64,000 nt of DNA from Candidatus Latescibacterota bacterium (GTDB lineage: Bacteria; Latescibacterota; UBA2968), in assembly GCA_965208125.1 (NCBI GenBank), contig OZ242320.1, positions 1,536,001 to 1,600,000 on the forward strand, given 5' to 3'. The notes under the pieces were generated by a model. It was not told where the DNA came from and ran no database searches. It saw only the letters and a program-made list of their open reading frames with translations. The translations under genes and the position numbers were made by a program. Positions 22,838-54,059 of the stretch are shown here, one piece after another (the stretch's first letter is position 1; each line of letters starts with the position of its first letter).

Positions 22838-22925
22838 TGGCGGTGGGGGTGGGATTCGAACCCACGGACCCGCGAGGGTCAACGGTTTTCAAGACCGCCC
22901 GATTCGACCGCTCTCGCACCCCACC
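22838..22925 (-). tRNA. tRNA-Ser(TGA)
   Basis: GGTGGGG acceptor stem, anticodon loop CTTGAAA, long variable arm, CCA end. Confidence 0.96.
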
Positions 22926-42445: not shown

Positions 42446-44065
42446 ATGCTGCGAAACTATGTTCTACTCGTGATGACATTCATAACATTTGGACAGGCAG
42501 ACGCGGGATTGCTACCAGAAACCCCCAGTCCTCAAGGTGGGGATCTCACCGGTTCCTGGGTAGCCAGGAAATTCGAACTGAACGCTTATGTCCCGGCTGC
42601 GCTCGTGGAAGCAGTAAAGCCTCTTACAGTTGAAGGCGAGATCAACGGCACACTGATTTTGGATTCAGATGGCAGTATTCAAGCGAACTACGAGACAGTA
42701 GCCAATGTCTCTGCGTTATTATGGGTTCTACTTACGGTCACTGTACACGATACGAGCCAATACACAGGCAATTACACCGTCATGTCCGATACACATGAGC
42801 TCATCATAACACGCGAAAATGAAGATCCACTCAATTATACGTACACGGCTACGGCGGATTCACTGCATATTATACGTCCGCTTCTTTTAGATGAATTATT
42901 GGCGTCATTACCCGAATCTGTAAGAGACCTGGCACTGAGTTCGCTTTCTCATCTCGTTCCGCCAGATGATCCTATCAGGTTCGTGATCAGTTTTGCAAAA
43001 TCGGCAGATATAGGGACATCGAGTGTGCTAACGGGTGATTTTAATGGGAATGGTGTGGTTAATATTTCCGATTTTTTACTGTTTGTAACTCACTTCGAGA
43101 CAAGTCGTGGCGATAGGACGTATAACGCCAGGTATGATCTGGACAGCAACGGCGTAATTGGATTCTCCGATTTTCTGATCTTTGTCAACAACTTTGGTAA
43201 AGAGGCATCTTCCCCTGGCGGTGTTGCAACGATCGTTGCCATTCCGGATGAGAATCTGCTCGCTGTTATCGAGAATAGTCTCGACAAGGCGGAGGGTACT
43301 CCGATCACCAGAGGTGACATGGTGGCCTTAACGAACCTTGAGGCACCAAACAATAATATTCGCGATCTAACCGGACTTGAGTTTGCAATTAACCTGACAA
43401 AGCTGTCTCTTTACAACAACAGCATATCGGACATCACACCCCTTTCAAGATTGAACAGTCTGGAATGGCTGGTTCTTTCCAGCAACAGCATATCGGACAT
43501 CACACCCCTTCTGGGATTGAACAGTCTGGAATGGCTGTATCTTTCCAACAACAGCGTATCGAACATCACACCCCTTTCAAGATTGAACAATCTGGAATGG
43601 CTGTTTCTCGAAAGCAACAGCATATCGGACATCACACCCCTTTCAGGATTCAACAATCTGGAAGGACTGTATCTTTACAACAACAGCATATCGGACATCA
43701 CATCCCTTTCGGGATTGAACAGTCTAAGATTGCTGGATCTTGAAAACAACAGCATATCGGACATCACATCCCTTTCAGGATTGAACAGTCTGGAAAGGCT
43801 ATCTCTTCACAGCAACAGCATATCGGACCTCGCGCCCCTGGTCGCAAATACGGGATTGGGTAGTGGGGATTGGGTTTATGTGAGAAATAACCCGTTAAAT
43901 GCTACATCAATCAACACGCACATTCCAGCACTTCAGAGCAGAGGGATTAATGTGAGCTTTGGCGCGTCGAAGCCCGCGGCAGGTGAGCAAGAACGAGACA
44001 TATTCCGTTCCTTTAGGGAGGAACTGGGGAGAGGCCCCTCTCCACCACCGGCAACATCACCCTGA
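42446..44065 (+). CDS. Secreted protein with dockerin-like module and internalin-type LRRs
   Basis: DFNGNGVVN..DLDSNGVI; IPDENL cap; 22-aa NSISDITPLSxLNSLEWLxL repeats. Confidence 0.85.
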   Translation: MLRNYVLLVMTFITFGQADAGLLPETPSPQGGDLTGSWVARKFELNAYVPAALVEAVKPLTVEGEINGTLILDSDGSIQANYETVANVSALLWVLLTVTVHDTSQYTGNYTVMSDTHELIITRENEDPLNYTYTATADSLHIIRPLLLDELLASLPESVRDLALSSLSHLVPPDDPIRFVISFAKSADIGTSSVLTGDFNGNGVVNISDFLLFVTHFETSRGDRTYNARYDLDSNGVIGFSDFLIFVNNFGKEASSPGGVATIVAIPDENLLAVIENSLDKAEGTPITRGDMVALTNLEAPNNNIRDLTGLEFAINLTKLSLYNNSISDITPLSRLNSLEWLVLSSNSISDITPLLGLNSLEWLYLSNNSVSNITPLSRLNNLEWLFLESNSISDITPLSGFNNLEGLYLYNNSISDITSLSGLNSLRLLDLENNSISDITSLSGLNSLERLSLHSNSISDLAPLVANTGLGSGDWVYVRNNPLNATSINTHIPALQSRGINVSFGASKPAAGEQERDIFRSFREELGRGPSPPPATSP

Positions 44066-47000
44066 ACGTCGTGCCCACGCCCTGCTCGCTCTCCACCGCG
44101 ATCTCCCCATCGTGATTGCGAACAATGGCATAAATAATCGACAACCCCAAACCCGTACCCCGGTCTGCATCCTTAGTCGTAAAAAAAGGCTCAAAAAGAC
44201 GCTGCCGGATCGCCTCATCCATTCCAACCCCATTATCCTCCACCTCGACAACAACCGCATCGTCCTCACCCCGCGTTCTGATCCAGACCTGCTTATCATA
44301 CCCCGCCCCCTCCATCTCCGCCCGCTCATCCACTGCATCCCGGGCATTAGACAGCAAATTGAGAACCACCTGCTCAAGAGGATGCGGATGTCCCCAGACC
44401 TCTGGGAGCGCGTCAGAAAGATCCAGCCAGAGATCAATCCCGTGCCTTTCAAGCTGCGAACCCATCAACTTCAGACTGCTCTGTATCACCTCATTCACAA
44501 CCATCGCCTGGCGTGGCTCCTCGGACACATCGCGCGAAAACACACGCAAATGATCGACAGTACCTGCCATCCGACCAACCACACCCCGAACATCCTCCAT
44601 CATCTCCCTCAACTCGTCCGTCTCAAGTGGCATACCCTCCATCAGCCGCAGGGAAATATCTCCAGCAGTTGTCTCAACGGCGGTCAGCGGCTGGTTGAGC
44701 TCGTGTGCCACACCCGCAACCATCTGCCCCAGCGACACCAGACGTGCGGACTGCAAAAGCTGCGTCTCATTAGCAGCTGCAAGATCTTCATTCGCCTTCC
44801 GCAATTTCCGATCCCGAACAATAATCCGCGAAATCAGATAACCCGTAAGAATCACAAACCCCAGGATCAACCCGATAAACCACAGACGGCGCCACACCAG
44901 CGGAACAACATTGAACGACATCGCAGACGGTATGGGATCTTCATTAAACGCCAGATCGCGCGCTTTAACCTCCAGCGTATGCGTCCCCACATCCAGACCC
45001 TCAAAGGATAGGACCGTATCCCCGCCATAAGGCGACCACGCCCCACCATTCAAACGGTGGGCGTATTGCAGATCTTCGCGCAATGTACTTCGCCAGGCGT
45101 CTATCCCTGTCCACGCGAAAGTTATCTTTTCACCTTCAGAGACTTCATCCTGAACAATAGTCATCACGGTTTCAGGTGGATCTGTCTCTGGCACATATCG
45201 AATCGTACGCAGCGTACAGGACGCCACAACGCCCTCGGATTCTGACCGTTTGTGCCAGGCGCCTGTATCAGATACAAAATTGAGCCAGAGTGCTCCGTCT
45301 CCAGACTGGAGAATCGGATCATGGAACTCTGTGTGCGGAAGTCCGGAAGGTAAAGCCTGTGGCAACCATGCGCGCCCATCAAACCGGCTAACACCCCCTG
45401 CCGTCCCCACCCAGATCGCGCCATCCCGATCCTGAAAAATACTTCGCACCTCATTATCCGCCAGCCCATCGCCATAATCGAACTGCTGCCACGCCGTCCC
45501 ATCATACCGAAACACCCCATAAATTCGGGACCCCAACCACAGGTCCCCCTGAGTATAAACAGCATCAATAAAACCTCTGGTCAACTCCTCTGGTCCAGTA
45601 AATTGTACCTCTCGCACCCCATCAAAACCGAACAGCCTTCCGCCAAACCACAAAATCCCATCAGAACTCTGCCCGATCCCATAAGCATAACGCGTCATCT
45701 CCGGAGGAGTATAATGTGTCCATCTCACCCCATCAAAAACCACCACCCCACCGAGAAAGCCATCATATAACCACCAATCCACCGCCGCGGCAAACCACAG
45801 AGAACCGTCAAAAGCCTCATAAACCGCACGCGGATCAACACCCCAGGAAAGCTGGGGATGGCGATCCATAACCCATTCAGAACCATTCAACCGCGCTGTA
45901 GCGGCGACATACTCATGGCTACCCGCAGCCCACAACGCACCCTCTCGCGTCACAATCAACTTACCCGGCATATCCATCAAGCCATCCGCCACACCAAACC
46001 GCGTCCATCCCTGCGCATCACGACGCACAACACCGTTATCCTGCGAGATAAACCATTGCGCCCCATCGGGCGTATCGCACTGAAAAATGAGACCCTCATA
46101 AGTCTGCCAGTGCTTCCCACTCAAATCCAGACGCGCAGCTTCCTGTCCGCGGCCTATAATCCAGAGCGCGCCATCCGCCGCCTCGAAAAGTTCCATACGG
46201 TGCGACGGCAACGACACAACATCTTTCGAATCATAAACGCGCCACACACCATCCCTATAAGCAATCAAGCGACTACCACCAATCCAGAGCGTCCCATCCC
46301 GACTTTCTATGATAGACGTATAATGATGGTCGAGATCACCAACTTCAAGCACCTCCCACTTCTCGCCGTCAAACCGGTTGACACTTTTACTCTTATCGCC
46401 ATACACCACCCAAACGATACCGTCCTCTGTCACACACATCCTCGGATACACACCCTGATCGATCCCATCATCCCCACTAAAACGCTGATAACCCGATGCA
46501 AAATCAAAACGAATCAGATCGCCATCGTGCGTCCCAAACCAGATCGCCCCATTGGACCCTTCACACACATCATAAACCATCAACCTCCGATTGTCCAAAA
46601 CGCGATCTGGAACCACAACAAAAGTCACCGCATCGGATACCATCTCCCGAACACCTGTCGTATCCTCCGCAGCCACATACAACCTTACCCCATCTGGCGT
46701 CAACCTGAGCGCACCCCATTCCGTACCCACCCACAAACTCCCATCCTGTGCCTCCATCAAATCATAGGTATTCCATTCTCCCTCAGATGGAAATACCCAT
46801 TCCCACGCCCCATTCTCAAAACGACTAATACCCCGATCAGACCCCACATAAACACCGCCATCCCGGGCGACATAAAGCGCGTTGATCCGCGCCCCAACCA
46901 TCCCCTCATCAAACGGAAAGAGATGCCAACTTATCCCATCGTAGCGATAAATACCATCATCCGTCCCAAATAAAAAACTACCATCCCCATCCTCCACCAA

Positions 47001-47156
47001 ACACGACACGCCTTGCCCCTTCAACTCTGGAAAAGATCGCCAGCGCCAGGACTCATGCACAGGATCTGGATGACGAGGCGTAAAAGGCGTCGCCGCGAAA
47101 CACACACTCGCGCCCACAAGCATCAGAAGCATCAGACATTTTGTGCATTCAATCAT
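44013..47156 (-). CDS. Membrane sensor histidine kinase with beta-propeller and Y_Y_Y-like periplasmic region
   Basis: Signal peptide, propeller repeats, TM helix, AHELNQPL, NLLSNA, DNGVG, FFTTK, GTGLGL. Confidence 0.93.
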   Translation of the reverse strand: MIECTKCLMLLMLVGASVCFAATPFTPRHPDPVHESWRWRSFPELKGQGVSCLVEDGDGSFLFGTDDGIYRYDGISWHLFPFDEGMVGARINALYVARDGGVYVGSDRGISRFENGAWEWVFPSEGEWNTYDLMEAQDGSLWVGTEWGALRLTPDGVRLYVAAEDTTGVREMVSDAVTFVVVPDRVLDNRRLMVYDVCEGSNGAIWFGTHDGDLIRFDFASGYQRFSGDDGIDQGVYPRMCVTEDGIVWVVYGDKSKSVNRFDGEKWEVLEVGDLDHHYTSIIESRDGTLWIGGSRLIAYRDGVWRVYDSKDVVSLPSHRMELFEAADGALWIIGRGQEAARLDLSGKHWQTYEGLIFQCDTPDGAQWFISQDNGVVRRDAQGWTRFGVADGLMDMPGKLIVTREGALWAAGSHEYVAATARLNGSEWVMDRHPQLSWGVDPRAVYEAFDGSLWFAAAVDWWLYDGFLGGVVVFDGVRWTHYTPPEMTRYAYGIGQSSDGILWFGGRLFGFDGVREVQFTGPEELTRGFIDAVYTQGDLWLGSRIYGVFRYDGTAWQQFDYGDGLADNEVRSIFQDRDGAIWVGTAGGVSRFDGRAWLPQALPSGLPHTEFHDPILQSGDGALWLNFVSDTGAWHKRSESEGVVASCTLRTIRYVPETDPPETVMTIVQDEVSEGEKITFAWTGIDAWRSTLREDLQYAHRLNGGAWSPYGGDTVLSFEGLDVGTHTLEVKARDLAFNEDPIPSAMSFNVVPLVWRRLWFIGLILGFVILTGYLISRIIVRDRKLRKANEDLAAANETQLLQSARLVSLGQMVAGVAHELNQPLTAVETTAGDISLRLMEGMPLETDELREMMEDVRGVVGRMAGTVDHLRVFSRDVSEEPRQAMVVNEVIQSSLKLMGSQLERHGIDLWLDLSDALPEVWGHPHPLEQVVLNLLSNARDAVDERAEMEGAGYDKQVWIRTRGEDDAVVVEVEDNGVGMDEAIRQRLFEPFFTTKDADRGTGLGLSIIYAIVRNHDGEIAVESEQGVGTTFRVMLPVVERGLSPVPP

Positions 47157-47170
47157 ACTCAATCCATCCA

Positions 47171-47210
47171 TAAAAAAAGCGGCACTGGCGATAAATATCA
47201 CCAGCACCGC
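47171..47210 (-). terminator. Rho-independent terminator downstream of the Calx-beta gene
   Basis: GCGGTGCTGGTGAT-ATTT-ATCGCCAGTGCCGC followed by T7 on the minus strand. Confidence 0.8.
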
Positions 47211-47397: not shown

Positions 47398-49698
47398 TCA
47401 ATCGTTGTCCTCAACAGTCACGCTCGCCGAGAATGGACTACCCAATAAATTGTCATCACTGTCTTTCCATTGCGCGGTCAGGGTGACCACACTATCAGGC
47501 TCATCTACATCATCATCTATGGTCTTGATCGTAAGCGTGGTGGCGTTCTGAGTTCCACTAACCAGCACTTCGCCGCTCATGACATCGCCAGATTCGTCGA
47601 TACCTATACTTAGATTTCCCTGGGGTAAAGTAATCGTACTCGGGGAAATAATCGTAAAGGTCACATCCGTCCCTTCCGTCACAGGGGTAGTACCGGCAGA
47701 AATTGTCGTCTCTGAGAGATCGTTGTCTTGAACCGTCACACTCGCAGAAGAAGAACTACCCACTGCATAACCCGTACCAGCCTCCACTTCCGCAGTCACG
47801 CTGCTATTGATCTCACCTACATTATCATCGTCCGTATTGACCGTCAGCGTGGCAGTGGATTCGTTGGCGTTGATGGTCACCGATGAGGGTGCTGCCCCAC
47901 TGATCACAGCGCCATCCTCGGTCACGCTCACACTCACGGTTATTGCTGTTGTCGGAGCAGGGGATGCTGTAATCGTGAACGTCGCTGCCGTGCCCTCAGT
48001 CACAGGGGTAGTACCGGCAGAGATCGTCACTTGTGGGTGTTCGTTGTCGCTCACGGTCACACTCGCAGAAGAAGAACTACCCACATTATAACCTGTGCCA
48101 GTCGCCACTTGCGCGGTCACGATGCTATTGTTCTCACCTACATTATCATCGTCCGTATTAACCGTCAGCGTAGCAGTGGTCGCGTTGGCGTTGATGGTCA
48201 CCGATGAAGGTGCTGTACCACTGATCACAGCGCCATCCTCACTGACGCTCACATTCACTGTCAATGGGGAGGCTGGCGCAGGGGAAGCCGTGATTGTGAA
48301 CGTCGCTGCCGTACCCTCGGTCACAGGAGTAGTACCCGCAGAGATCGTCACTTGTGGGTGTTCGTTGTCGCTCACGGTCACACTCGCAGAGGAAGGACTA
48401 CCCACGGTATAACCTGTTCCGGTCTGCACTTCCGCCGTCACGATGCTATTGTTCTCACCTACATTATCATTATCCGTATTGACCCTCAGCGTGGCTGCGG
48501 ACTCGTTGGCGTCGATGGTCACCGATGAGGGTGCTGCCCCACTGATCACATCGCCATCCTCACTGACGTTCACATTCACCGTCAATGGGGAAGCTGACCG
48601 AGGGAACGCCGCGATTACAAAAACCGCTACCCTACCCTCAGTCACAGGTCCGCTAAGAGCTCGGATCGTCACCCTTGGGAGATCGTTATCCTCAACCGTC
48701 ACACTCGCAGAAGATGAACTGCCCACGGTATAACCTGTTCCGGTCTGCACTTCCGCCGTCACCACACTGTTAGACTCATCTGTCTTATCATTATCCGTAT
48801 TAACCGTCAGCGTAGCAGTGGACTCGTTGGCGTTGATGGTCACCGATGAGGGTGCTGTCCCACTGATCACATCGCCATCCTCGGTCACGCTCACACTCAC
48901 GGTTATTGCTGAGGTTGGCGCAGAGGATGCTGTGATCGTGAACGTCGCTGCCGTACCCTCCGTCACAGGGGTAGTACCCGCAGAGATCGTCACCTGTGGG
49001 GTCACCTGCTGTTGTCCGGTCGGCGGTGGGGGCGCAGGATCGTCATTATCCTCAACCGTCACACTCGCAGAGGAGGAACTGCCCACTGTATAGCCTGTCC
49101 CACTCTCCACTTCCGCTGTCACCACACTATTAGACTCATCTGCATCATCATCGTCCGTATTGACCGTCAGCGTAGCAGTGGACTCGTTGGCGTCGATGGT
49201 CACTGTCGAAGACGGCGTCCCACTGATCACATCGCCATCCTCGGTCACGCTCACACTCACGGTTATTGCTGAGGTCGGCGCAGAGGATGCCGTAATTGTA
49301 AACGTCGCTGACGTACCTTCCGTCACAGGTGAAGTACCCGCTGAAATTGTCACCTGTGGGGTCTCCTGTGGGGTCTCCTGCTGTTGCGAGGGCGAATCGT
49401 CGATGTTCACTGTCTTGCCCCAATTGGAAATCAAGATCCTGAGATCCAATTGGTTGATGACCCCATCGCCGTGCAGATCCAACTCCTCCTGCCAATTTGG
49501 TCCACCTGCTCGCGTTCCCCAATTGGAGATAAGGAGTCTTAAGTCCAATTCATCGACAATCCCATCGTCGTTAAAGTCCGAAGATGGCGGACTACTATCC
49601 TGTGAAAAAAGCGACAAAGGAGCAATCAAGAGCAGAAGGCTCAGAAAACTGGCGATACGGAGCGTGAAGTTGGGATACGAATTACGACTAATCATCAT
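47398..49698 (-). CDS. Secreted adhesin-like protein: dockerin-like module + six Calx-beta-like repeats
   Basis: GGAG RBS before ATG 49698; signal peptide; DFNDDGIVD..DLHGDGVI; ~107-aa VTISAGTTPVTEG...TDDD...ASVTVEDND repeats. Confidence 0.85.
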   Translation of the reverse strand: MMISRNSYPNFTLRIASFLSLLLLIAPLSLFSQDSSPPSSDFNDDGIVDELDLRLLISNWGTRAGGPNWQEELDLHGDGVINQLDLRILISNWGKTVNIDDSPSQQQETPQETPQVTISAGTSPVTEGTSATFTITASSAPTSAITVSVSVTEDGDVISGTPSSTVTIDANESTATLTVNTDDDDADESNSVVTAEVESGTGYTVGSSSSASVTVEDNDDPAPPPPTGQQQVTPQVTISAGTTPVTEGTAATFTITASSAPTSAITVSVSVTEDGDVISGTAPSSVTINANESTATLTVNTDNDKTDESNSVVTAEVQTGTGYTVGSSSSASVTVEDNDLPRVTIRALSGPVTEGRVAVFVIAAFPRSASPLTVNVNVSEDGDVISGAAPSSVTIDANESAATLRVNTDNDNVGENNSIVTAEVQTGTGYTVGSPSSASVTVSDNEHPQVTISAGTTPVTEGTAATFTITASPAPASPLTVNVSVSEDGAVISGTAPSSVTINANATTATLTVNTDDDNVGENNSIVTAQVATGTGYNVGSSSSASVTVSDNEHPQVTISAGTTPVTEGTAATFTITASPAPTTAITVSVSVTEDGAVISGAAPSSVTINANESTATLTVNTDDDNVGEINSSVTAEVEAGTGYAVGSSSSASVTVQDNDLSETTISAGTTPVTEGTDVTFTIISPSTITLPQGNLSIGIDESGDVMSGEVLVSGTQNATTLTIKTIDDDVDEPDSVVTLTAQWKDSDDNLLGSPFSASVTVEDND

Positions 49699-49772
49699 TT
49701 TTCTCCATAGACATATATGCAAACGTTCTCAGTTAGGGTGAAAGATCGACGGCAAATAAGCCGAGAATTAAC

Positions 49773-49806
49773 TCAATAACACCTAATTATACTTATACGG
49801 ATATAA
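49773..49806 (-). other. loxP-like recombination site A (inverted copy)
   Basis: Minus strand TTATATCCGTATA-AGTATAAT-TAGGTGTTATTGA; 49784-49801 is the exact reverse complement of 49927-49944. Confidence 0.7.
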
Positions 49807-49913
49807 GTTGCTTCGGCTATACTGAGAAGCAGATCAACCTTTTGCTTTGTTCTTTTTTAACGCTTAAATGGTTTCGTTTGTTGCGCGGTCACTGCCTCGC
49901 TAAACGTTTGTAT

Positions 49914-49942
49914 TTGACAAAATAATTCCGTATAAGTATAAT
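49914..49942 (+). promoter_or_regulatory. Perfect sigma70 promoter: -35 inside the putative invertible segment, -10 in the site spacer
   Basis: TTGACA (49914-19), N17, TATAAT (49937-42). Confidence 0.88.
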
Positions 49943-49955
49943 TATATGGATTAAA
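49922..49955 (+). other. loxP-like recombination site B
   Basis: ATAATTCCGTATA-AGTATAAT-TATATGGATTAAA; 13-8-13 layout; left arm matches loxP ATAACTTCGTATA at 11/13. Confidence 0.75.
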
Positions 49956-50043
49956 ATATCAGATTACCGAGCACAAAGCCGACAGCTTAACCCTCCGTAT
50001 AACCTGACAGTTAGCCACAGTCGAGCAGCTCAGGAGCGACTCT

Positions 50044-50982
50044 ATGCTACGAAATATCTCCCTACAATCTGCCCTCGACACCACGCCCGCGTCAATATCC
50101 ATCGACATGGCCCGATTGATGCAGGCCAGCATCGCGCCCAACACGGCGAAGGCGTACCACACTGCTCTTGACAAGCTGACCAAATATTTGAACGGGCGGC
50201 CACCAACCGACGGGACACTGGCCGACTACTTAGCCCACTTATATGCCAGAGGACTGGCGCCCGCTTCTATCGCCTTAGTGGTGCAAGCCATCCGCTTTTG
50301 GGAAAAAATAGAAGGCCGTCCATCGAGTGTTGGCCCGTTGACGACTCGCACCCTGGCCGGAATCCGCCGCGAAGGTCGAGGACGAGGCCGCGGCCAGGTA
50401 ACTGGATTGACCCGAGAGACGGTCAAACTCATGGCTCATAACGCCACCAAGACCGGCACCCTGGCCGGATTGAGAGACGCCGCCCTGTTGCGCGTGATGA
50501 GCGACGCCCTGTTGAGGATCGGCGAGGCTGTAGCCATCGACTGCGAGCACATCACGACCGAAGCCGACGGTACCGGACGACTTGAGATCCATCAGAGCAA
50601 AACCGACCAGAATGGGAAAGGCACGAGCCTCTACTTGACCACCCGCACCATTGATGCCATCCGCCAGTTGCAGGCCCGCGCTGGCTACAAGACCGGCCCT
50701 CTCTTTCGTCGGATGTTAAAGGGCGACCACATGAGCAACAACCGCTTGACAGTCGATGGTGCGCGATTAGCCATCAAAGCGTCCGCAAAGCAAGCCGGTA
50801 TTGCGGGCGTAAGCGGCCACAGCCTCCGAATTGGAACTGCCCAGGAGCTTGCCCAGCGCGGCGCTACCCTGGTCGAGTTGCAGAACGCCGGCCGCTGGAC
50901 AGATAGCCAGATGCCAGCCCACTATACCCGCAATCAGGCCGCAGGTAAGGGAGCCGTGGCCCGCTTGCTGCGAGATGACTAA
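50044..50982 (+). CDS. Cre-like tyrosine recombinase
   Basis: RDAALL..ALLRIGE (R), SKTDQ (K), SGHSLRIG (H-x-x-R), AGRW (W), HYTR (Y), C-terminal GAVARLL; AGGAG RBS. Confidence 0.92.
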   Translation: MLRNISLQSALDTTPASISIDMARLMQASIAPNTAKAYHTALDKLTKYLNGRPPTDGTLADYLAHLYARGLAPASIALVVQAIRFWEKIEGRPSSVGPLTTRTLAGIRREGRGRGRGQVTGLTRETVKLMAHNATKTGTLAGLRDAALLRVMSDALLRIGEAVAIDCEHITTEADGTGRLEIHQSKTDQNGKGTSLYLTTRTIDAIRQLQARAGYKTGPLFRRMLKGDHMSNNRLTVDGARLAIKASAKQAGIAGVSGHSLRIGTAQELAQRGATLVELQNAGRWTDSQMPAHYTRNQAAGKGAVARLLRDD

Positions 50983-51171: not shown

Positions 51172-51732
51172 ATGAACGATGCGGAATTGATTGCCCAGTT
51201 CCGAGCCGGGCAAATCGCGGCCTTTAACACCCTGGTCAAACGCTGGGAGTGTCCGATCTACAACTTTGTCCTGCGCTATGTGGGCAATCGCGACGACGCG
51301 CGCGACCTGTGTCAGCAAACCTTTATCCGCGCGTATAAAAACATGCGGCGCTTGCGCGACCCCGACAAATTCACCTCGTGGATCTATCAAATCGCGCTCA
51401 ACGCCTGCCGCGACGCTGGCCGCCGTCGCAGCCTCGTCTCCCTCGACACACTCGACACCCCTATAGCAGACACAACAACGCCCCCAGACGCGCTGATACA
51501 CGAACAAAGTGTTCGGGACCTGCTCAACCGCGCACTGCAAAACTTGCCCGAAGAACAGCGCATCGTCATCATCATGAAAGAATATCAGGGACTAAAATTC
51601 ACCGAAATTGCCGAAACACTCAAAGTGCCCATCAACACCGTCAAATCCAGAATGTATTACGGCCTCTCTGCCCTCAAAAAAATCTTTGACCGCTGGCACA
51701 TCAGCGAGGACATGGTGCGTTATGAACTGTGA
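51172..51732 (+). CDS. ECF RNA polymerase sigma factor
   Basis: DARDLCQQTFIRAY, FTSWIYQIALN, EIAETL.VPINTVKSR. Confidence 0.95.
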   Translation: MNDAELIAQFRAGQIAAFNTLVKRWECPIYNFVLRYVGNRDDARDLCQQTFIRAYKNMRRLRDPDKFTSWIYQIALNACRDAGRRRSLVSLDTLDTPIADTTTPPDALIHEQSVRDLLNRALQNLPEEQRIVIIMKEYQGLKFTEIAETLKVPINTVKSRMYYGLSALKKIFDRWHISEDMVRYEL

Positions 51733-52468
51733 CATCACCCGCGAACAAATAGTCGCCTACCTCTACGACGAAGACATCCGTCCAGAAGCGCGTGAACGCC
51801 TCAAAGTACACATCGAAACCTGCCCATTATGCAGCCAAACCCTTGAAGAACTGGGCAGCACATCCCGCATCCTCAATGCCTGGGGCGACGAAAAACCCGA
51901 CATGGACCTCGTCTTTGTACAGGAACGCCAAACCCTCTGGCAAAACCTGCTCCCCACGCGATACCCCAAAACCTGGGCAACTGCAGGCGTAGCCATCGCC
52001 GCAATCCTCATCTTCACCTTTCTCAACATCGAATTTGCCATACGAGACGGCGCATTCCACACCTCTATCGGCCTGCGATCCAGCGATCCTCCCGAGCAAA
52101 TCGCCATCACCGACACCACTGAAGCCCCCTCATTAGACGCCCCCATCACCCTCGGCGAATTTATCATCCATCAACAAAACTTGATCGACTACACCAATCG
52201 CCTCGTCCAAACATCGCAAAACCAGCAACGCAATGAAATCAACAACACTTTTATCCGCCTCGTAGGCGAACTCGAAACCCAACGTCAACAGGACCTCCTG
52301 CGCATAGACCGCGGGCTACAAATCCTCTACAACACACAGGAAACCCGCTATGGTCACATCCTGCGACAAATAGCTCCTGTTTATAATAAAGAAGCTGTTG
52401 AAGTTAAAGAAATCCCCATAGATAACCGACCATACCGCACGATTCCCACAAGAGGGAAAACCCCATGA
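51722..52468 (+). CDS. Zinc-finger (zf-HC2) transmembrane anti-sigma factor
   Basis: MNC...HIETCPLC, one TM helix; overlaps the sigma gene end. Confidence 0.85.
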   Translation: MNCDITREQIVAYLYDEDIRPEARERLKVHIETCPLCSQTLEELGSTSRILNAWGDEKPDMDLVFVQERQTLWQNLLPTRYPKTWATAGVAIAAILIFTFLNIEFAIRDGAFHTSIGLRSSDPPEQIAITDTTEAPSLDAPITLGEFIIHQQNLIDYTNRLVQTSQNQQRNEINNTFIRLVGELETQRQQDLLRIDRGLQILYNTQETRYGHILRQIAPVYNKEAVEVKEIPIDNRPYRTIPTRGKTP

Positions 52469-52827
52469 AACGCGAAATCGGAAAACTCGCAGTACTGATG
52501 ACAGCGCCGATCATGCTATCTCTCGTCTGGAATATTCACGCATCTGACAAAACGCTATCATCGGACACACGGGTAAAAACCGCGCAACTCGATACCCTAT
52601 CAATCCCTCATACTGCACAACTCGATTCCTTGAGCAAGGCACTCTCCGATTCCATACGCAGAAGAGTTAGAATTCTTATCTCAGAACGCCACAACCCCAA
52701 CGCCCGCGACCTGCTTCTCCGCCCGGCTGACAAAGCCAGCTATACCACAAGCGACCTGCTCCTCAGACCCAATGACAACATCAATTCTATATTTATCTCG
52801 CGTCATCCCACGCGAGTACAACGCTAA
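52465..52827 (+). CDS. Hypothetical exported protein
   Basis: ATGA overlap, signal-like N-terminus, repeated DLLLRP. Confidence 0.55.
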   Translation: MKREIGKLAVLMTAPIMLSLVWNIHASDKTLSSDTRVKTAQLDTLSIPHTAQLDSLSKALSDSIRRRVRILISERHNPNARDLLLRPADKASYTTSDLLLRPNDNINSIFISRHPTRVQR

Positions 52828-52841
52828 AAGGAGATATTTCA

Positions 52842-54059
52842 ATGTATCACTCTCATCTACTAAAAATCGCAATCATTGTTCAGATATTTGCTACAAGTGT
52901 AATCGCCCAGGAGATCTCAACTGAGAAGGTCAAAGAAGTGTTGGTTATGAATGTAATGGGAACGCAGAGCCTGATCGGACAGACTGCGCCAGAGTTGGAC
53001 ATCGAAAAATTTCTACAAGCACCAGAAGGAGAAAAAAGCTTATCGGCATTAAAGGGCAAAGTTGTCGTCCTGGAATTTTGGGCAACCTGGTGTGCCCCCT
53101 GTGTGGCAGCAATCCCACATCTGAACCAGTTAAACGAGGAATTTCGCGACAAGCAGGTACAGTTTATCTCAGTAACAGATGAAGGCGAAGACGTAATTGC
53201 GCCATTTCTAAAACGACAAGAAATGAAATCGTGGATTGGACTGGACACGGACCGGTCGGTTTTCGAAGCTTATGGTGTTAAAGGAATCCCACGGACATTT
53301 TTGATCAACCAGGAGGGCATAATCGCCGCATCACTCCACCCGGCAGGGCTCTCATCTGACATGATCGAAAAGGTCATCGCGGGAGAAAAAATAGAACGTC
53401 CCAAATTGCCAAAACCGAGAACTGTCGAAAGCGAAGGCACCGACCCCATCTTCAAAATATCGATAGCACCTACAGAAAAAGAAGGTGGCCGTAGTTCAAG
53501 CAAAATTTCAAAAGGATACAAACAGCAGGAAGCAGAGAGCAGGACATTGCACCAGATTTTAAGCATGGCTTATGGCGTTCCCCAAACGCGGATTACAGGT
53601 CCAAAGGCACTTTTAGAGTCACGGTACGAGATTTCAGTCAGACTGCCGACCAATCAGTTCGAATTGCTATTCCAACAAGCATTGACTGCATCGCTACAAT
53701 TGCGCGTTTCCAACCAGAAAAAACCTGTTGAAGTCCTCGTACTCACGGCTGGAGAAGACAGCGCAGAAAAATTGAAGCCCACAGTAATGGGTTCAGGGGG
53801 ATCTATGACAATGGGTGGACGTGGCAAGATAAAGACAATGAACGGTGAAATCAGCAGACTGGCGCAATCATTGGAACATGTTTTGGAACGTGTCGTAGAG
53901 GATGGTACCGGGATAGAAGGAAAATACGACTGGGAACTCACCTATGACGAAGACGATCCCAATTCCGTGATCGCAGTCTTAGAAGAACAACTCGGTTTAC
54001 AAGTTCGGAAAGAACAGCGGGAGATAGAGTTTTTGGTTGTGAATGATGCCAGTGATTGA
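52842..54059 (+). CDS. TlpA-like redoxin fused to a TIGR03435/DUF3738-like domain
   Basis: EFWATWCAPC; C-terminal ERVVEDGTGIEGKYDWEL...LEEQLGLQV. Confidence 0.8.
   Translation: MYHSHLLKIAIIVQIFATSVIAQEISTEKVKEVLVMNVMGTQSLIGQTAPELDIEKFLQAPEGEKSLSALKGKVVVLEFWATWCAPCVAAIPHLNQLNEEFRDKQVQFISVTDEGEDVIAPFLKRQEMKSWIGLDTDRSVFEAYGVKGIPRTFLINQEGIIAASLHPAGLSSDMIEKVIAGEKIERPKLPKPRTVESEGTDPIFKISIAPTEKEGGRSSSKISKGYKQQEAESRTLHQILSMAYGVPQTRITGPKALLESRYEISVRLPTNQFELLFQQALTASLQLRVSNQKKPVEVLVLTAGEDSAEKLKPTVMGSGGSMTMGGRGKIKTMNGEISRLAQSLEHVLERVVEDGTGIEGKYDWELTYDEDDPNSVIAVLEEQLGLQVRKEQREIEFLVVNDASD

Follow-up and report, generated by a model that had tools for sequence, protein, structure and literature searches.

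A candidate Cre-type inverton with lox-like sites and a promoter split across its crossover site in an uncultured bacterium

Recombinase, lox-like sites and promoter at the locus

We analyzed a 64,000-nucleotide stretch of contig OZ242320.1 from a Candidatus Latescibacterota bacterium (hereafter the window) and focused on the region between two divergent genes, one encoding a Cre-type tyrosine recombinase and the other a secreted repeat protein. A first-pass annotation of this DNA had proposed that an invertible promoter lies here and toggles between the two genes. The inverted repeat underlying that proposal was found at exactly the positions given: TAATTATACTTATACGGA at 49784–49801 and its exact reverse complement at 49927–49944 constitute a perfect 18-bp repeat with 125 bp between the arms, and a longer match of 27 nt at 85% is also seen. 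Searching the window for the 18-mer with up to three mismatches yielded three matches (both arms plus an overlapping self-match) where 0.03 would be expected, and none of 100 shuffles reached three matches. The repeat is single in the complete genome, one contig of 5.75 Mb, with no further copy at fewer than three mismatches. The coordinates of the features are summarized in Table 1.

Table 1. Features of the candidate switch and its flanking genes (window coordinates).
Feature	Position	Strand	Remarks
Secreted repeat protein, 766 amino acids from ATG 49698	47398–49698	minus	Divergent from the recombinase gene; open reading frame open from TTG 49722
Distal lox-like site	49773–49806	minus	Inverted relative to the proximal site
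Mirror −10, TATAAT	49791–49786	minus	Faces the surface-protein gene; about 90 bp upstream of ATG 49698
Putative invertible segment	49794–49934		DNA from spacer to spacer, both inner arms included; 141 bp
GAAGCA at the −35 position of the mirror −10, assembled orientation	49814–49809	minus	Read from the sequence
−35 box, TTGACA	49914–49919	plus	On the putative invertible segment, separated by 2 bp from the inner arm of the proximal site
Proximal lox-like 13-8-13 site, 34 bp	49922–49955	plus	Inner arm 49922–49934, spacer AGTATAAT 49935–49942, outer arm 49943–49955
−10 box, TATAAT	49937–49942	plus	Spacer positions 3–8; faces the recombinase gene
Cre-type tyrosine recombinase, 312 amino acids	50044–50982	plus	AGGAG upstream of ATG; Pfam Phage_integrase

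The recombinase had been assigned to the Cre family, and the assignment held. Seventeen of the 18 PDB sequences matched at E ≤ 0.01 were Cre or the Cre-derived Tre (best E value 4.5e-14), the remaining one being a XerC-like protein at E = 0.0094. Among phage proteins, 25 records matched, and the best of the 15 shown was Cre of P1/P7-like phages, with 27% identity at 94% coverage. Pairwise alignment with P1 Cre gave 28% identity over residues 20–311 (E = 6e-17) and placed R158, K186, H259, R262, W285, and Y294 opposite R173, K201, H289, R292, W315, and Y324 of Cre. The fifth catalytic position is accordingly Trp, not His, and R-K-H-R-W-Y is the catalytic set given for Cre-type enzymes in PMC10250229. 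By its sequence, the protein is a Cre-type enzyme, closer to Cre than to Xer or integrase types. The NCBIfam XerC, XerD, and XerA models scored 34–56 bits, far below their cut-offs of 220–335; an integron integrase was dismissed because the XerA/integron-integrase model reached 56 bits against a cut-off of 220 and the left neighbor is a 774-amino-acid gene, not a cassette array. Elsewhere in the same genome (C1:1719093–1719281), a 79-amino-acid open fragment matches the C-terminal end of the recombinase at 46% identity and is probably the remnant of a second copy.

Two inverted lox-type sites with matching spacers had been predicted at the repeat, and the 13-8-13 alignment to loxP bears this out. 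The arms of the proximal site are complementary to each other at 9 of 13 positions and identical to those of P1 loxP (annotated in record X03453.1) at 11 and 8 of 13. The spacer of the distal site, ATTATACT at 49786–49793, is the reverse complement of the proximal spacer. Its inner arm (49794–49806) matches the proximal inner arm at 10 of 13 positions, and its outer arm (49773–49785) is degenerate, with 6 of 13 positions matching the proximal outer arm. A third copy of the arm core (TCCGTATAA) occurs in direct orientation at 49994–50002, within the leader of the recombinase gene and 40 bp past the proximal site. This copy is probably not essential, because the stretch that holds it is deleted in the orthologue of genome G006.

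The promoter facing the recombinase gene, with its −35 box inside the segment and its −10 box in the shared spacer, was confirmed as a 12/12 consensus match with a 17-bp distance between the boxes, and it is the sole 12/12 promoter-like site in 49500–50200. Perfect TTGACA-N16–18-TATAAT sites number 14 in the 5.75-Mb genome, compared with one for the reversed control pattern, and TTGACA-N17-TATACT lies upstream of the tRNA-Ser gene (22838–22925, minus strand). These two observations indicate that the organism uses the TTGACA/TATAAT consensus, as had been argued from the tRNA promoter, and the match at 49914–49942 ranks among its best. All promoter calls in this study are consensus matches; no RNA run was present among the 22 sequencing runs matching the genome. 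The mirror −10 with GAAGCA at its −35 position was likewise found by direct reading, as was its distance from the surface-protein ATG, which is in frame and preceded by GGAG 4–5 nt upstream. No other promoter-like site facing this gene was detected in 49500–50200.

Several further details of the intergenic region were noted. The most conserved part of the segment, 49806–49865, holds a hairpin (GTTGCTTC...GAAGC) with a T-rich tract after it, which might be a terminator that insulates the switch from read-in transcription; the consensus fold contained no compensatory pairs, and the hairpin was not called by a terminator scan. Rfam gave no match in 49400–50200 at E ≤ 1. On the minus strand, the spacer at 49935–49942 contains a −10-like TATACT with CTGATA 16 bp upstream (49962–49935; 9/12) that points into the segment, and this match may be due to chance.

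Partner sites and inversion in related loci

Recombinases of this family are common in uncultured Gemmatimonadota-type metagenome-assembled genomes, which are titled Gemmatimonadota or 'Candidatus Latescibacterota', and metagenomic orthologues with proteins of 83–95% identity are numerous. We compared orthologues from species-level genomes. The closest of them constitute the window clade, which comprises the genome of the window itself (G000), G006 (recombinase identity 93%), and G141 and G133 (83% each). In G006, G141, and G133, the homologous segment and both sites are present and colinear with the window; the repeat pair is thus conserved beside orthologous recombinases, as the first-pass annotation had required. 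The central hexamer of the spacer is identical between the partners within each genome and differs among genomes, being TTATAC in the window, CTATAC in G006 and G141, and CTATAA in G133; in G141 and G133, the partners are unlike at spacer positions 1 and 8. Across all clades, the central 6 bp are identical between partner sites in 17 of 17 pairs, with six hexamers in use, and positions 1 and 8 are free to differ. Such pairwise co-variation is a need of recombination partners, not of an operator. The −35/−10 pair reads TTGACA/TATAGT in G006.

A survey of related loci covered 18 genome loci, namely the three above and 15 new ones of 73–78% identity, together with one metagenome locus. In the sister clade of 16 loci, the core carries the central hexamer ATATGA about 390–400 bp upstream of the recombinase gene, and an inverted partner lies 250–500 bp further on. 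The inner ends of the segment are distinguishable, one having TTGACT and the other ending in TGACGCTCGGT; TTGACT is kept as the −35-position sequence in 12 loci. The split-promoter geometry, with the −35 on the mobile side and the −10 in the crossover region, recurs in this clade. The TTGACT end adjoins the recombinase-side site in 9 of the 16 loci and the far site in three (L047, L049, and L050), and in L063 the opposite segment end is at the recombinase side; nine segments accordingly face the recombinase gene and three or four the left gene. Orientation was not assignable in three loci, two of which have too little upstream DNA and one no recognizable site. When L049 and L050 were aligned with the reference L051, both flanks ran forward and the whole segment (194–597) was reversed, the reversed stretch of about 400 bp matching at 76% over 411 nt (E values 1e-79 and 2e-77). 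When placed on a 21-row tree of the recombinases, the flipped state requires no fewer than three changes and is not clustered, which indicates that inversion has happened repeatedly in the sister clade, in at least three independent flips. Flipped alleles had been predicted for relatives of the window; this was borne out by the sister clade, where both orientations occur, and not by the locus itself or its three closest orthologous loci.

These natural inversions also locate the exchange. In the seven loci with distinguishable inner ends, the base at spacer position 1 remains beside the outer arm in 7/7 distal and 6/7 proximal sites, and the base at position 8 moves together with the inner arm, again in 7/7 and 6/7. 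Exchange must then fall inside the central hexamer, and the sister-clade breakpoints are accordingly placed, from sequence comparison, within the central 6 bp of the spacer.

Some sister-clade segments show additional features. L047 has three sites, at 196, 454, and 779, with an inverted duplicate of the distal outer arm and core between the usual two, and may undergo two nested or alternative inversions. The segment of L051 contains tandem copies of a unit of about 21 bp (..caggatcgagcacgtcagc..) at about 330–470, which could be binding sites for an accessory factor. Small open reading frames called in the sister-clade segment flip along with it and may be spurious.

A similar layout was found in a more distant paralogue clade (G014, G007, and G004; recombinases 47–48% identical). 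A perfect 13-8-13 site lies about 105 bp upstream of the recombinase gene, and an inverted copy of the spacer and one arm is located 251–263 bp away from it. Here the segment contains a TTGACA-N17-TAAATT promoter directed at a gene for a SusC-like TonB receptor; the promoter hexamers are conserved and the 17 bp between them vary. In G015 (L008/L044; about 1260–1310 of L008), a 374-amino-acid DDE transposase gene is present between the recombinase and the SusC-like gene. The inner arm was lost to this insertion sequence, so that the lox-like site is reduced to its outer arm and the G015 switch is broken.

The gene on the other side of the switch encodes a secreted or surface-type protein in every clade. 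In the window, the protein combines a hydrophobic N-terminus with a dockerin-type domain and some six repeats of Ig-like/PKD/LapA type (Pfam Dockerin_1, PKD_4, LapA, Ig_3, and I-set). It had been named a Calx-beta adhesin; no Calx-beta domain was found in the 774-amino-acid protein even at E ≤ 5, and that label was rejected, whereas its surface-type character stood. The cargo of G006 is an orthologue with dockerin, cadherin, and fn3 domains, and that of G141 is a protein with a type IX secretion system tail. Collagen-repeat proteins, mostly with Big_2, adjoin the switch in 7 of 8 sister-clade loci tested, and the paralogue clade has the SusC-like receptor. The G006 orthologue (L039 3244–8031) is split by an insertion carrying a 261-amino-acid DDE transposase, so that an N-terminal piece of 433 amino acids adjoins the switch and a remainder of 863 amino acids lies beyond the insertion.

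The window and G006 have nothing but the recombinase and the repeat protein in common within ±8 kb; the histidine kinase, the extracytoplasmic function (ECF) sigma factor, and the other neighbors are not shared. Moreover, recombinases that are 83% identical were found in genomes of two different taxonomic families. Together these findings suggest that the recombinase and its switch form a transferable module. In the window, the module is flanked by genes at 44013–47207 and 51172–54059. A Reg_prop-type sensor histidine kinase of 1064 amino acids lies downstream of the surface-protein gene, and the other side has an ECF sigma factor, a zf-HC2 anti-sigma-like protein, and a DUF3738/AhpC-TSA protein.

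Proposed switch and competing explanations

Taken together, the locus is most likely an active Cre-type inverton, in which a single −35 box changes sides on inversion, leaving the recombinase gene for the surface-protein gene, and a −10 box is present at both ends; we hold this with good, though not full, confidence. In the proposed mechanism, the recombinase would bind the lox-like 13-8-13 site that precedes its own gene by about 90 bp and also the inverted partner 141 bp further upstream, which shares the spacer and one good arm. Strand exchange in the central 6 bp of both 8-bp spacers would then invert the DNA between them. From the breakpoints of the flipped orthologues, we place this exchange, by inference, inside the hexamers 49787–49792 and 49936–49941. 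The segment carries only the −35 TTGACA, and the −10 TATAAT, being part of the spacer, is found at both segment ends pointing outward. In the assembled state, a full consensus promoter faces the recombinase gene, and the surface-protein gene, with a −10 and no −35, would be OFF or at a basal level. In the flipped state, the full promoter would face the surface-protein gene (ON) and the recombinase gene would be left with the −10 only. The anatomy, the Cre-type enzyme, the conserved and co-varying site pairs, and the natural flips of orthologous loci are observed, and we infer that this locus still flips, that its hexamers serve as a promoter, and that less recombinase is expressed once the segment has flipped. 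Since a perfect −10 would still lie before the recombinase gene after a flip, the enzyme probably shuts itself off only in part, in keeping with the repeatedly flipped segments of the sister clade. The possible latch is hypothetical and would be softened by the perfect −10 that stays before both genes in either orientation. Occupancy of the site by the enzyme would presumably also hinder RNA polymerase at the −10, resulting in autorepression.

Several observations weigh against this interpretation. The promoter hexamers are decayed in the 83% orthologues (TTGCTA/TATAGA in G141 and TTGTCA/TATAGC in G133), and the promoter reading is thus not uniformly conserved across the compared sequences. 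A flipped copy was not seen in the window clade: G000, G006, G141, and G133 are colinear, and so is a contig of a related strain (X5). Logan contigs (X1, X3, and X4 of one sample, and X5) gave the assembled orientation only, with no strand-changing joint, at depths of about 4–10 that cannot reveal minority orientations. The poor distal outer arm, with its 6 of 13 matches, may make the distal site weak. Finally, an upstream inverted pair at ≥15/17 is missing from most of the more distant family members and present in 8 of the 30 phylum-level loci, compared with 4 hits in 90 shuffles; the family is thus not an invertase family throughout, and the switch architecture is clade-specific rather than family-wide.

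In the sample of X1, X3, and X4, a second, much more abundant relative of the recombinase gene was noted on a contig over 50054–50140 at a depth of 29–77, compared with about 4–7. This abundant relative has a different upstream sequence that resembles the G141/G133 type. Runs labeled sponge metagenome contain about one quarter of the sampled words, which is a hint only as to habitat.

The single orientation in all five window-clade observations (four genomes and the X5 contig) and the degenerate distal outer arm would also be expected if the family inverts DNA and the segment here is a frozen relic, fixed toward the recombinase. Its promoter would then drive the recombinase, with autorepression by site occupancy, and the surface gene would use a promoter of its own that was not recognized. 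A −10 within the recombinase binding site is the geometry that autorepression would call for. However, the 18-bp repeat is still perfect and the hexamers co-vary in the clade (TTATAC, CTATAC, and CTATAA), which a relic would not keep; the recombinase is intact with all its catalytic residues, and 49500–50200 offers no other promoter-like site toward the surface-protein gene. We therefore regard a frozen relic as unlikely, although it is the strongest of the alternatives.

It is more improbable still that there is no switch at all and that the proximal site is an ordinary resolution or integration site of a mobile element or replicon, like loxP of P1, with the distal half-site as a by-product or a looping operator. 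The lox site of P1 likewise lies upstream of cre, and both the sharing of only the recombinase and repeat protein between the window and G006 and the occurrence of 83% recombinases in two families suggest a mobile module. Inverted sites, however, can neither resolve nor excise; whole-segment inversions with spacer breakpoints occur in orthologous loci; and the 17/17 co-variation of the crossover hexamer serves partners in recombination rather than an operator. That the repeat arose by chance, or belongs to a miniature inverted-repeat transposable element (MITE) that landed between the genes, has next to no probability. The repeat does end in TA on both sides, as it would for a TA-duplicating element, whereas a MITE would be present in many dispersed copies. 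The single copy in 5.75 Mb, the expectation of 0.03, and the retention of the pair at the same place beside orthologous recombinases of other species effectively refute both of these explanations.

Relation to known systems and significance

The candidate inverton shares its protein family with Cre/loxP of P1 and with the Cre-type systems Dre/rox, Vika/vox, Nigri/nox, and Panto/pox. As in Cre/loxP, the site has 13-bp inverted arms and an asymmetric 8-bp spacer and lies just upstream of the recombinase gene. Cre recombines without accessory factors and exchanges strands with a 6-bp stagger. The crossover mapped in the sister clade to the central 6 bp, with hexamers shared by the partners, resembles that of Cre and agrees with the need of Cre partner sites for identical spacers, as stated in PMC11260471. 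Unlike the P1 system, the locus is chromosomal, its two inverted sites are only 141 bp apart, and the partner arm is degenerate. The spacer doubles as a −10, whereas the cre promoters of P1 are annotated in the record downstream of loxP and not inside it. The role proposed for the window is gene regulation, not plasmid-dimer resolution or cyclization.

Among invertible promoters, fimS of Escherichia coli is inverted by the tyrosine recombinases FimB and FimE, which switch a surface structure on or off by turning a short promoter segment, and the expression of one of the enzymes depends on orientation. The window switch would likewise invert a promoter segment beside a surface gene and tie enzyme expression to orientation. 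In fimS, the whole promoter is inside a 314-bp element with 9-bp repeats, and inversion depends on the accessory proteins IHF and Lrp; its recombinase genes are located upstream and share one direction, and FimB and FimE are not known to be Cre-type. The closest gene topology is that of the mrp element of Proteus mirabilis (PMC7444556), in which a single recombinase gene, mrpI, adjoins the invertible element, which lies between mrpI and mrpA and carries a sigma-70 promoter for the surface-adhesin operon on the other side. The first-pass annotation knew of no described example of the wiring in the window, and mrp is a partial precedent in this respect. However, mrpI is said in PMC7444556 to have an independent transcript of its own, whereas the only recognizable promoter of the window recombinase is the switchable one, with its −10 in the crossover site. 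Invertible promoters with adjacent tyrosine recombinases are also described in Bacteroides, including SusC/SusD-type loci (Weinacht 2004 as cited in PMC11602134; PMC4747536). The paralogue clade (G014, G004, and G007) resembles these loci, its promoter lying in the segment and pointing at a SusC-like receptor gene. The phylum and the recombinase subfamily are different, however, the sites are lox-like 13-8-13 sites, and in the window clade the promoter is split between mobile and fixed DNA.

Tyrosine-recombinase invertons beside surface genes are thus well known, and large surveys of invertons exist (the DeepInverton study, PMC11602134, and the PhaseFinder papers). The points that appear new are a Cre-type enzyme with loxP-like native sites, a promoter split across the crossover site, and the sharing of that promoter by the enzyme and its target. 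We found no description of a Cre-type, split-promoter inverton in a literature search that did not extend to the supplementary lists of PMC10250229 and PMC11602134, which may contain the family or the locus. Nor did the literature search find an inverton linked to a Gemmatimonad or phase variation linked to both sponges and eukaryotic-like proteins.

Cre is known almost only as a resolvase of phages and plasmids and as a laboratory tool. It is unusual, then, that the putative invertase would be a close functional cousin of Cre whose native sites resemble loxP. It is also unusual that the −35 would move and the −10 would be the crossover sequence, so that one event switches the surface gene on and strips the enzyme of its own −35, and that repeated natural flips map the exchange region without an experiment. 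On a wider and more tentative view, which we think somewhat less probable than not, the locus would represent a natural Cre/lox module whose spacer is a −10 box. One event would hand the −35 from the recombinase gene to a gene for a host-interaction surface protein. The enzyme would throttle its own synthesis, and may also repress it by occupying the site, which would make a self-limiting, biased bet-hedging switch. Such modules, with at least three site specificities, would control dockerin, cadherin, and collagen-like 'eukaryote-like' proteins and SusC-like receptors in uncultured Gemmatimonadota-type bacteria. If this is true, the family would supply several orthogonal Cre/lox-type enzyme–site pairs, with known natural spacers and half-degenerate partner sites, for genome engineering. 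If confirmed, the switch would be a documented case of eukaryote-like surface proteins under phase variation, in a lineage that is uncultured and has been little studied.

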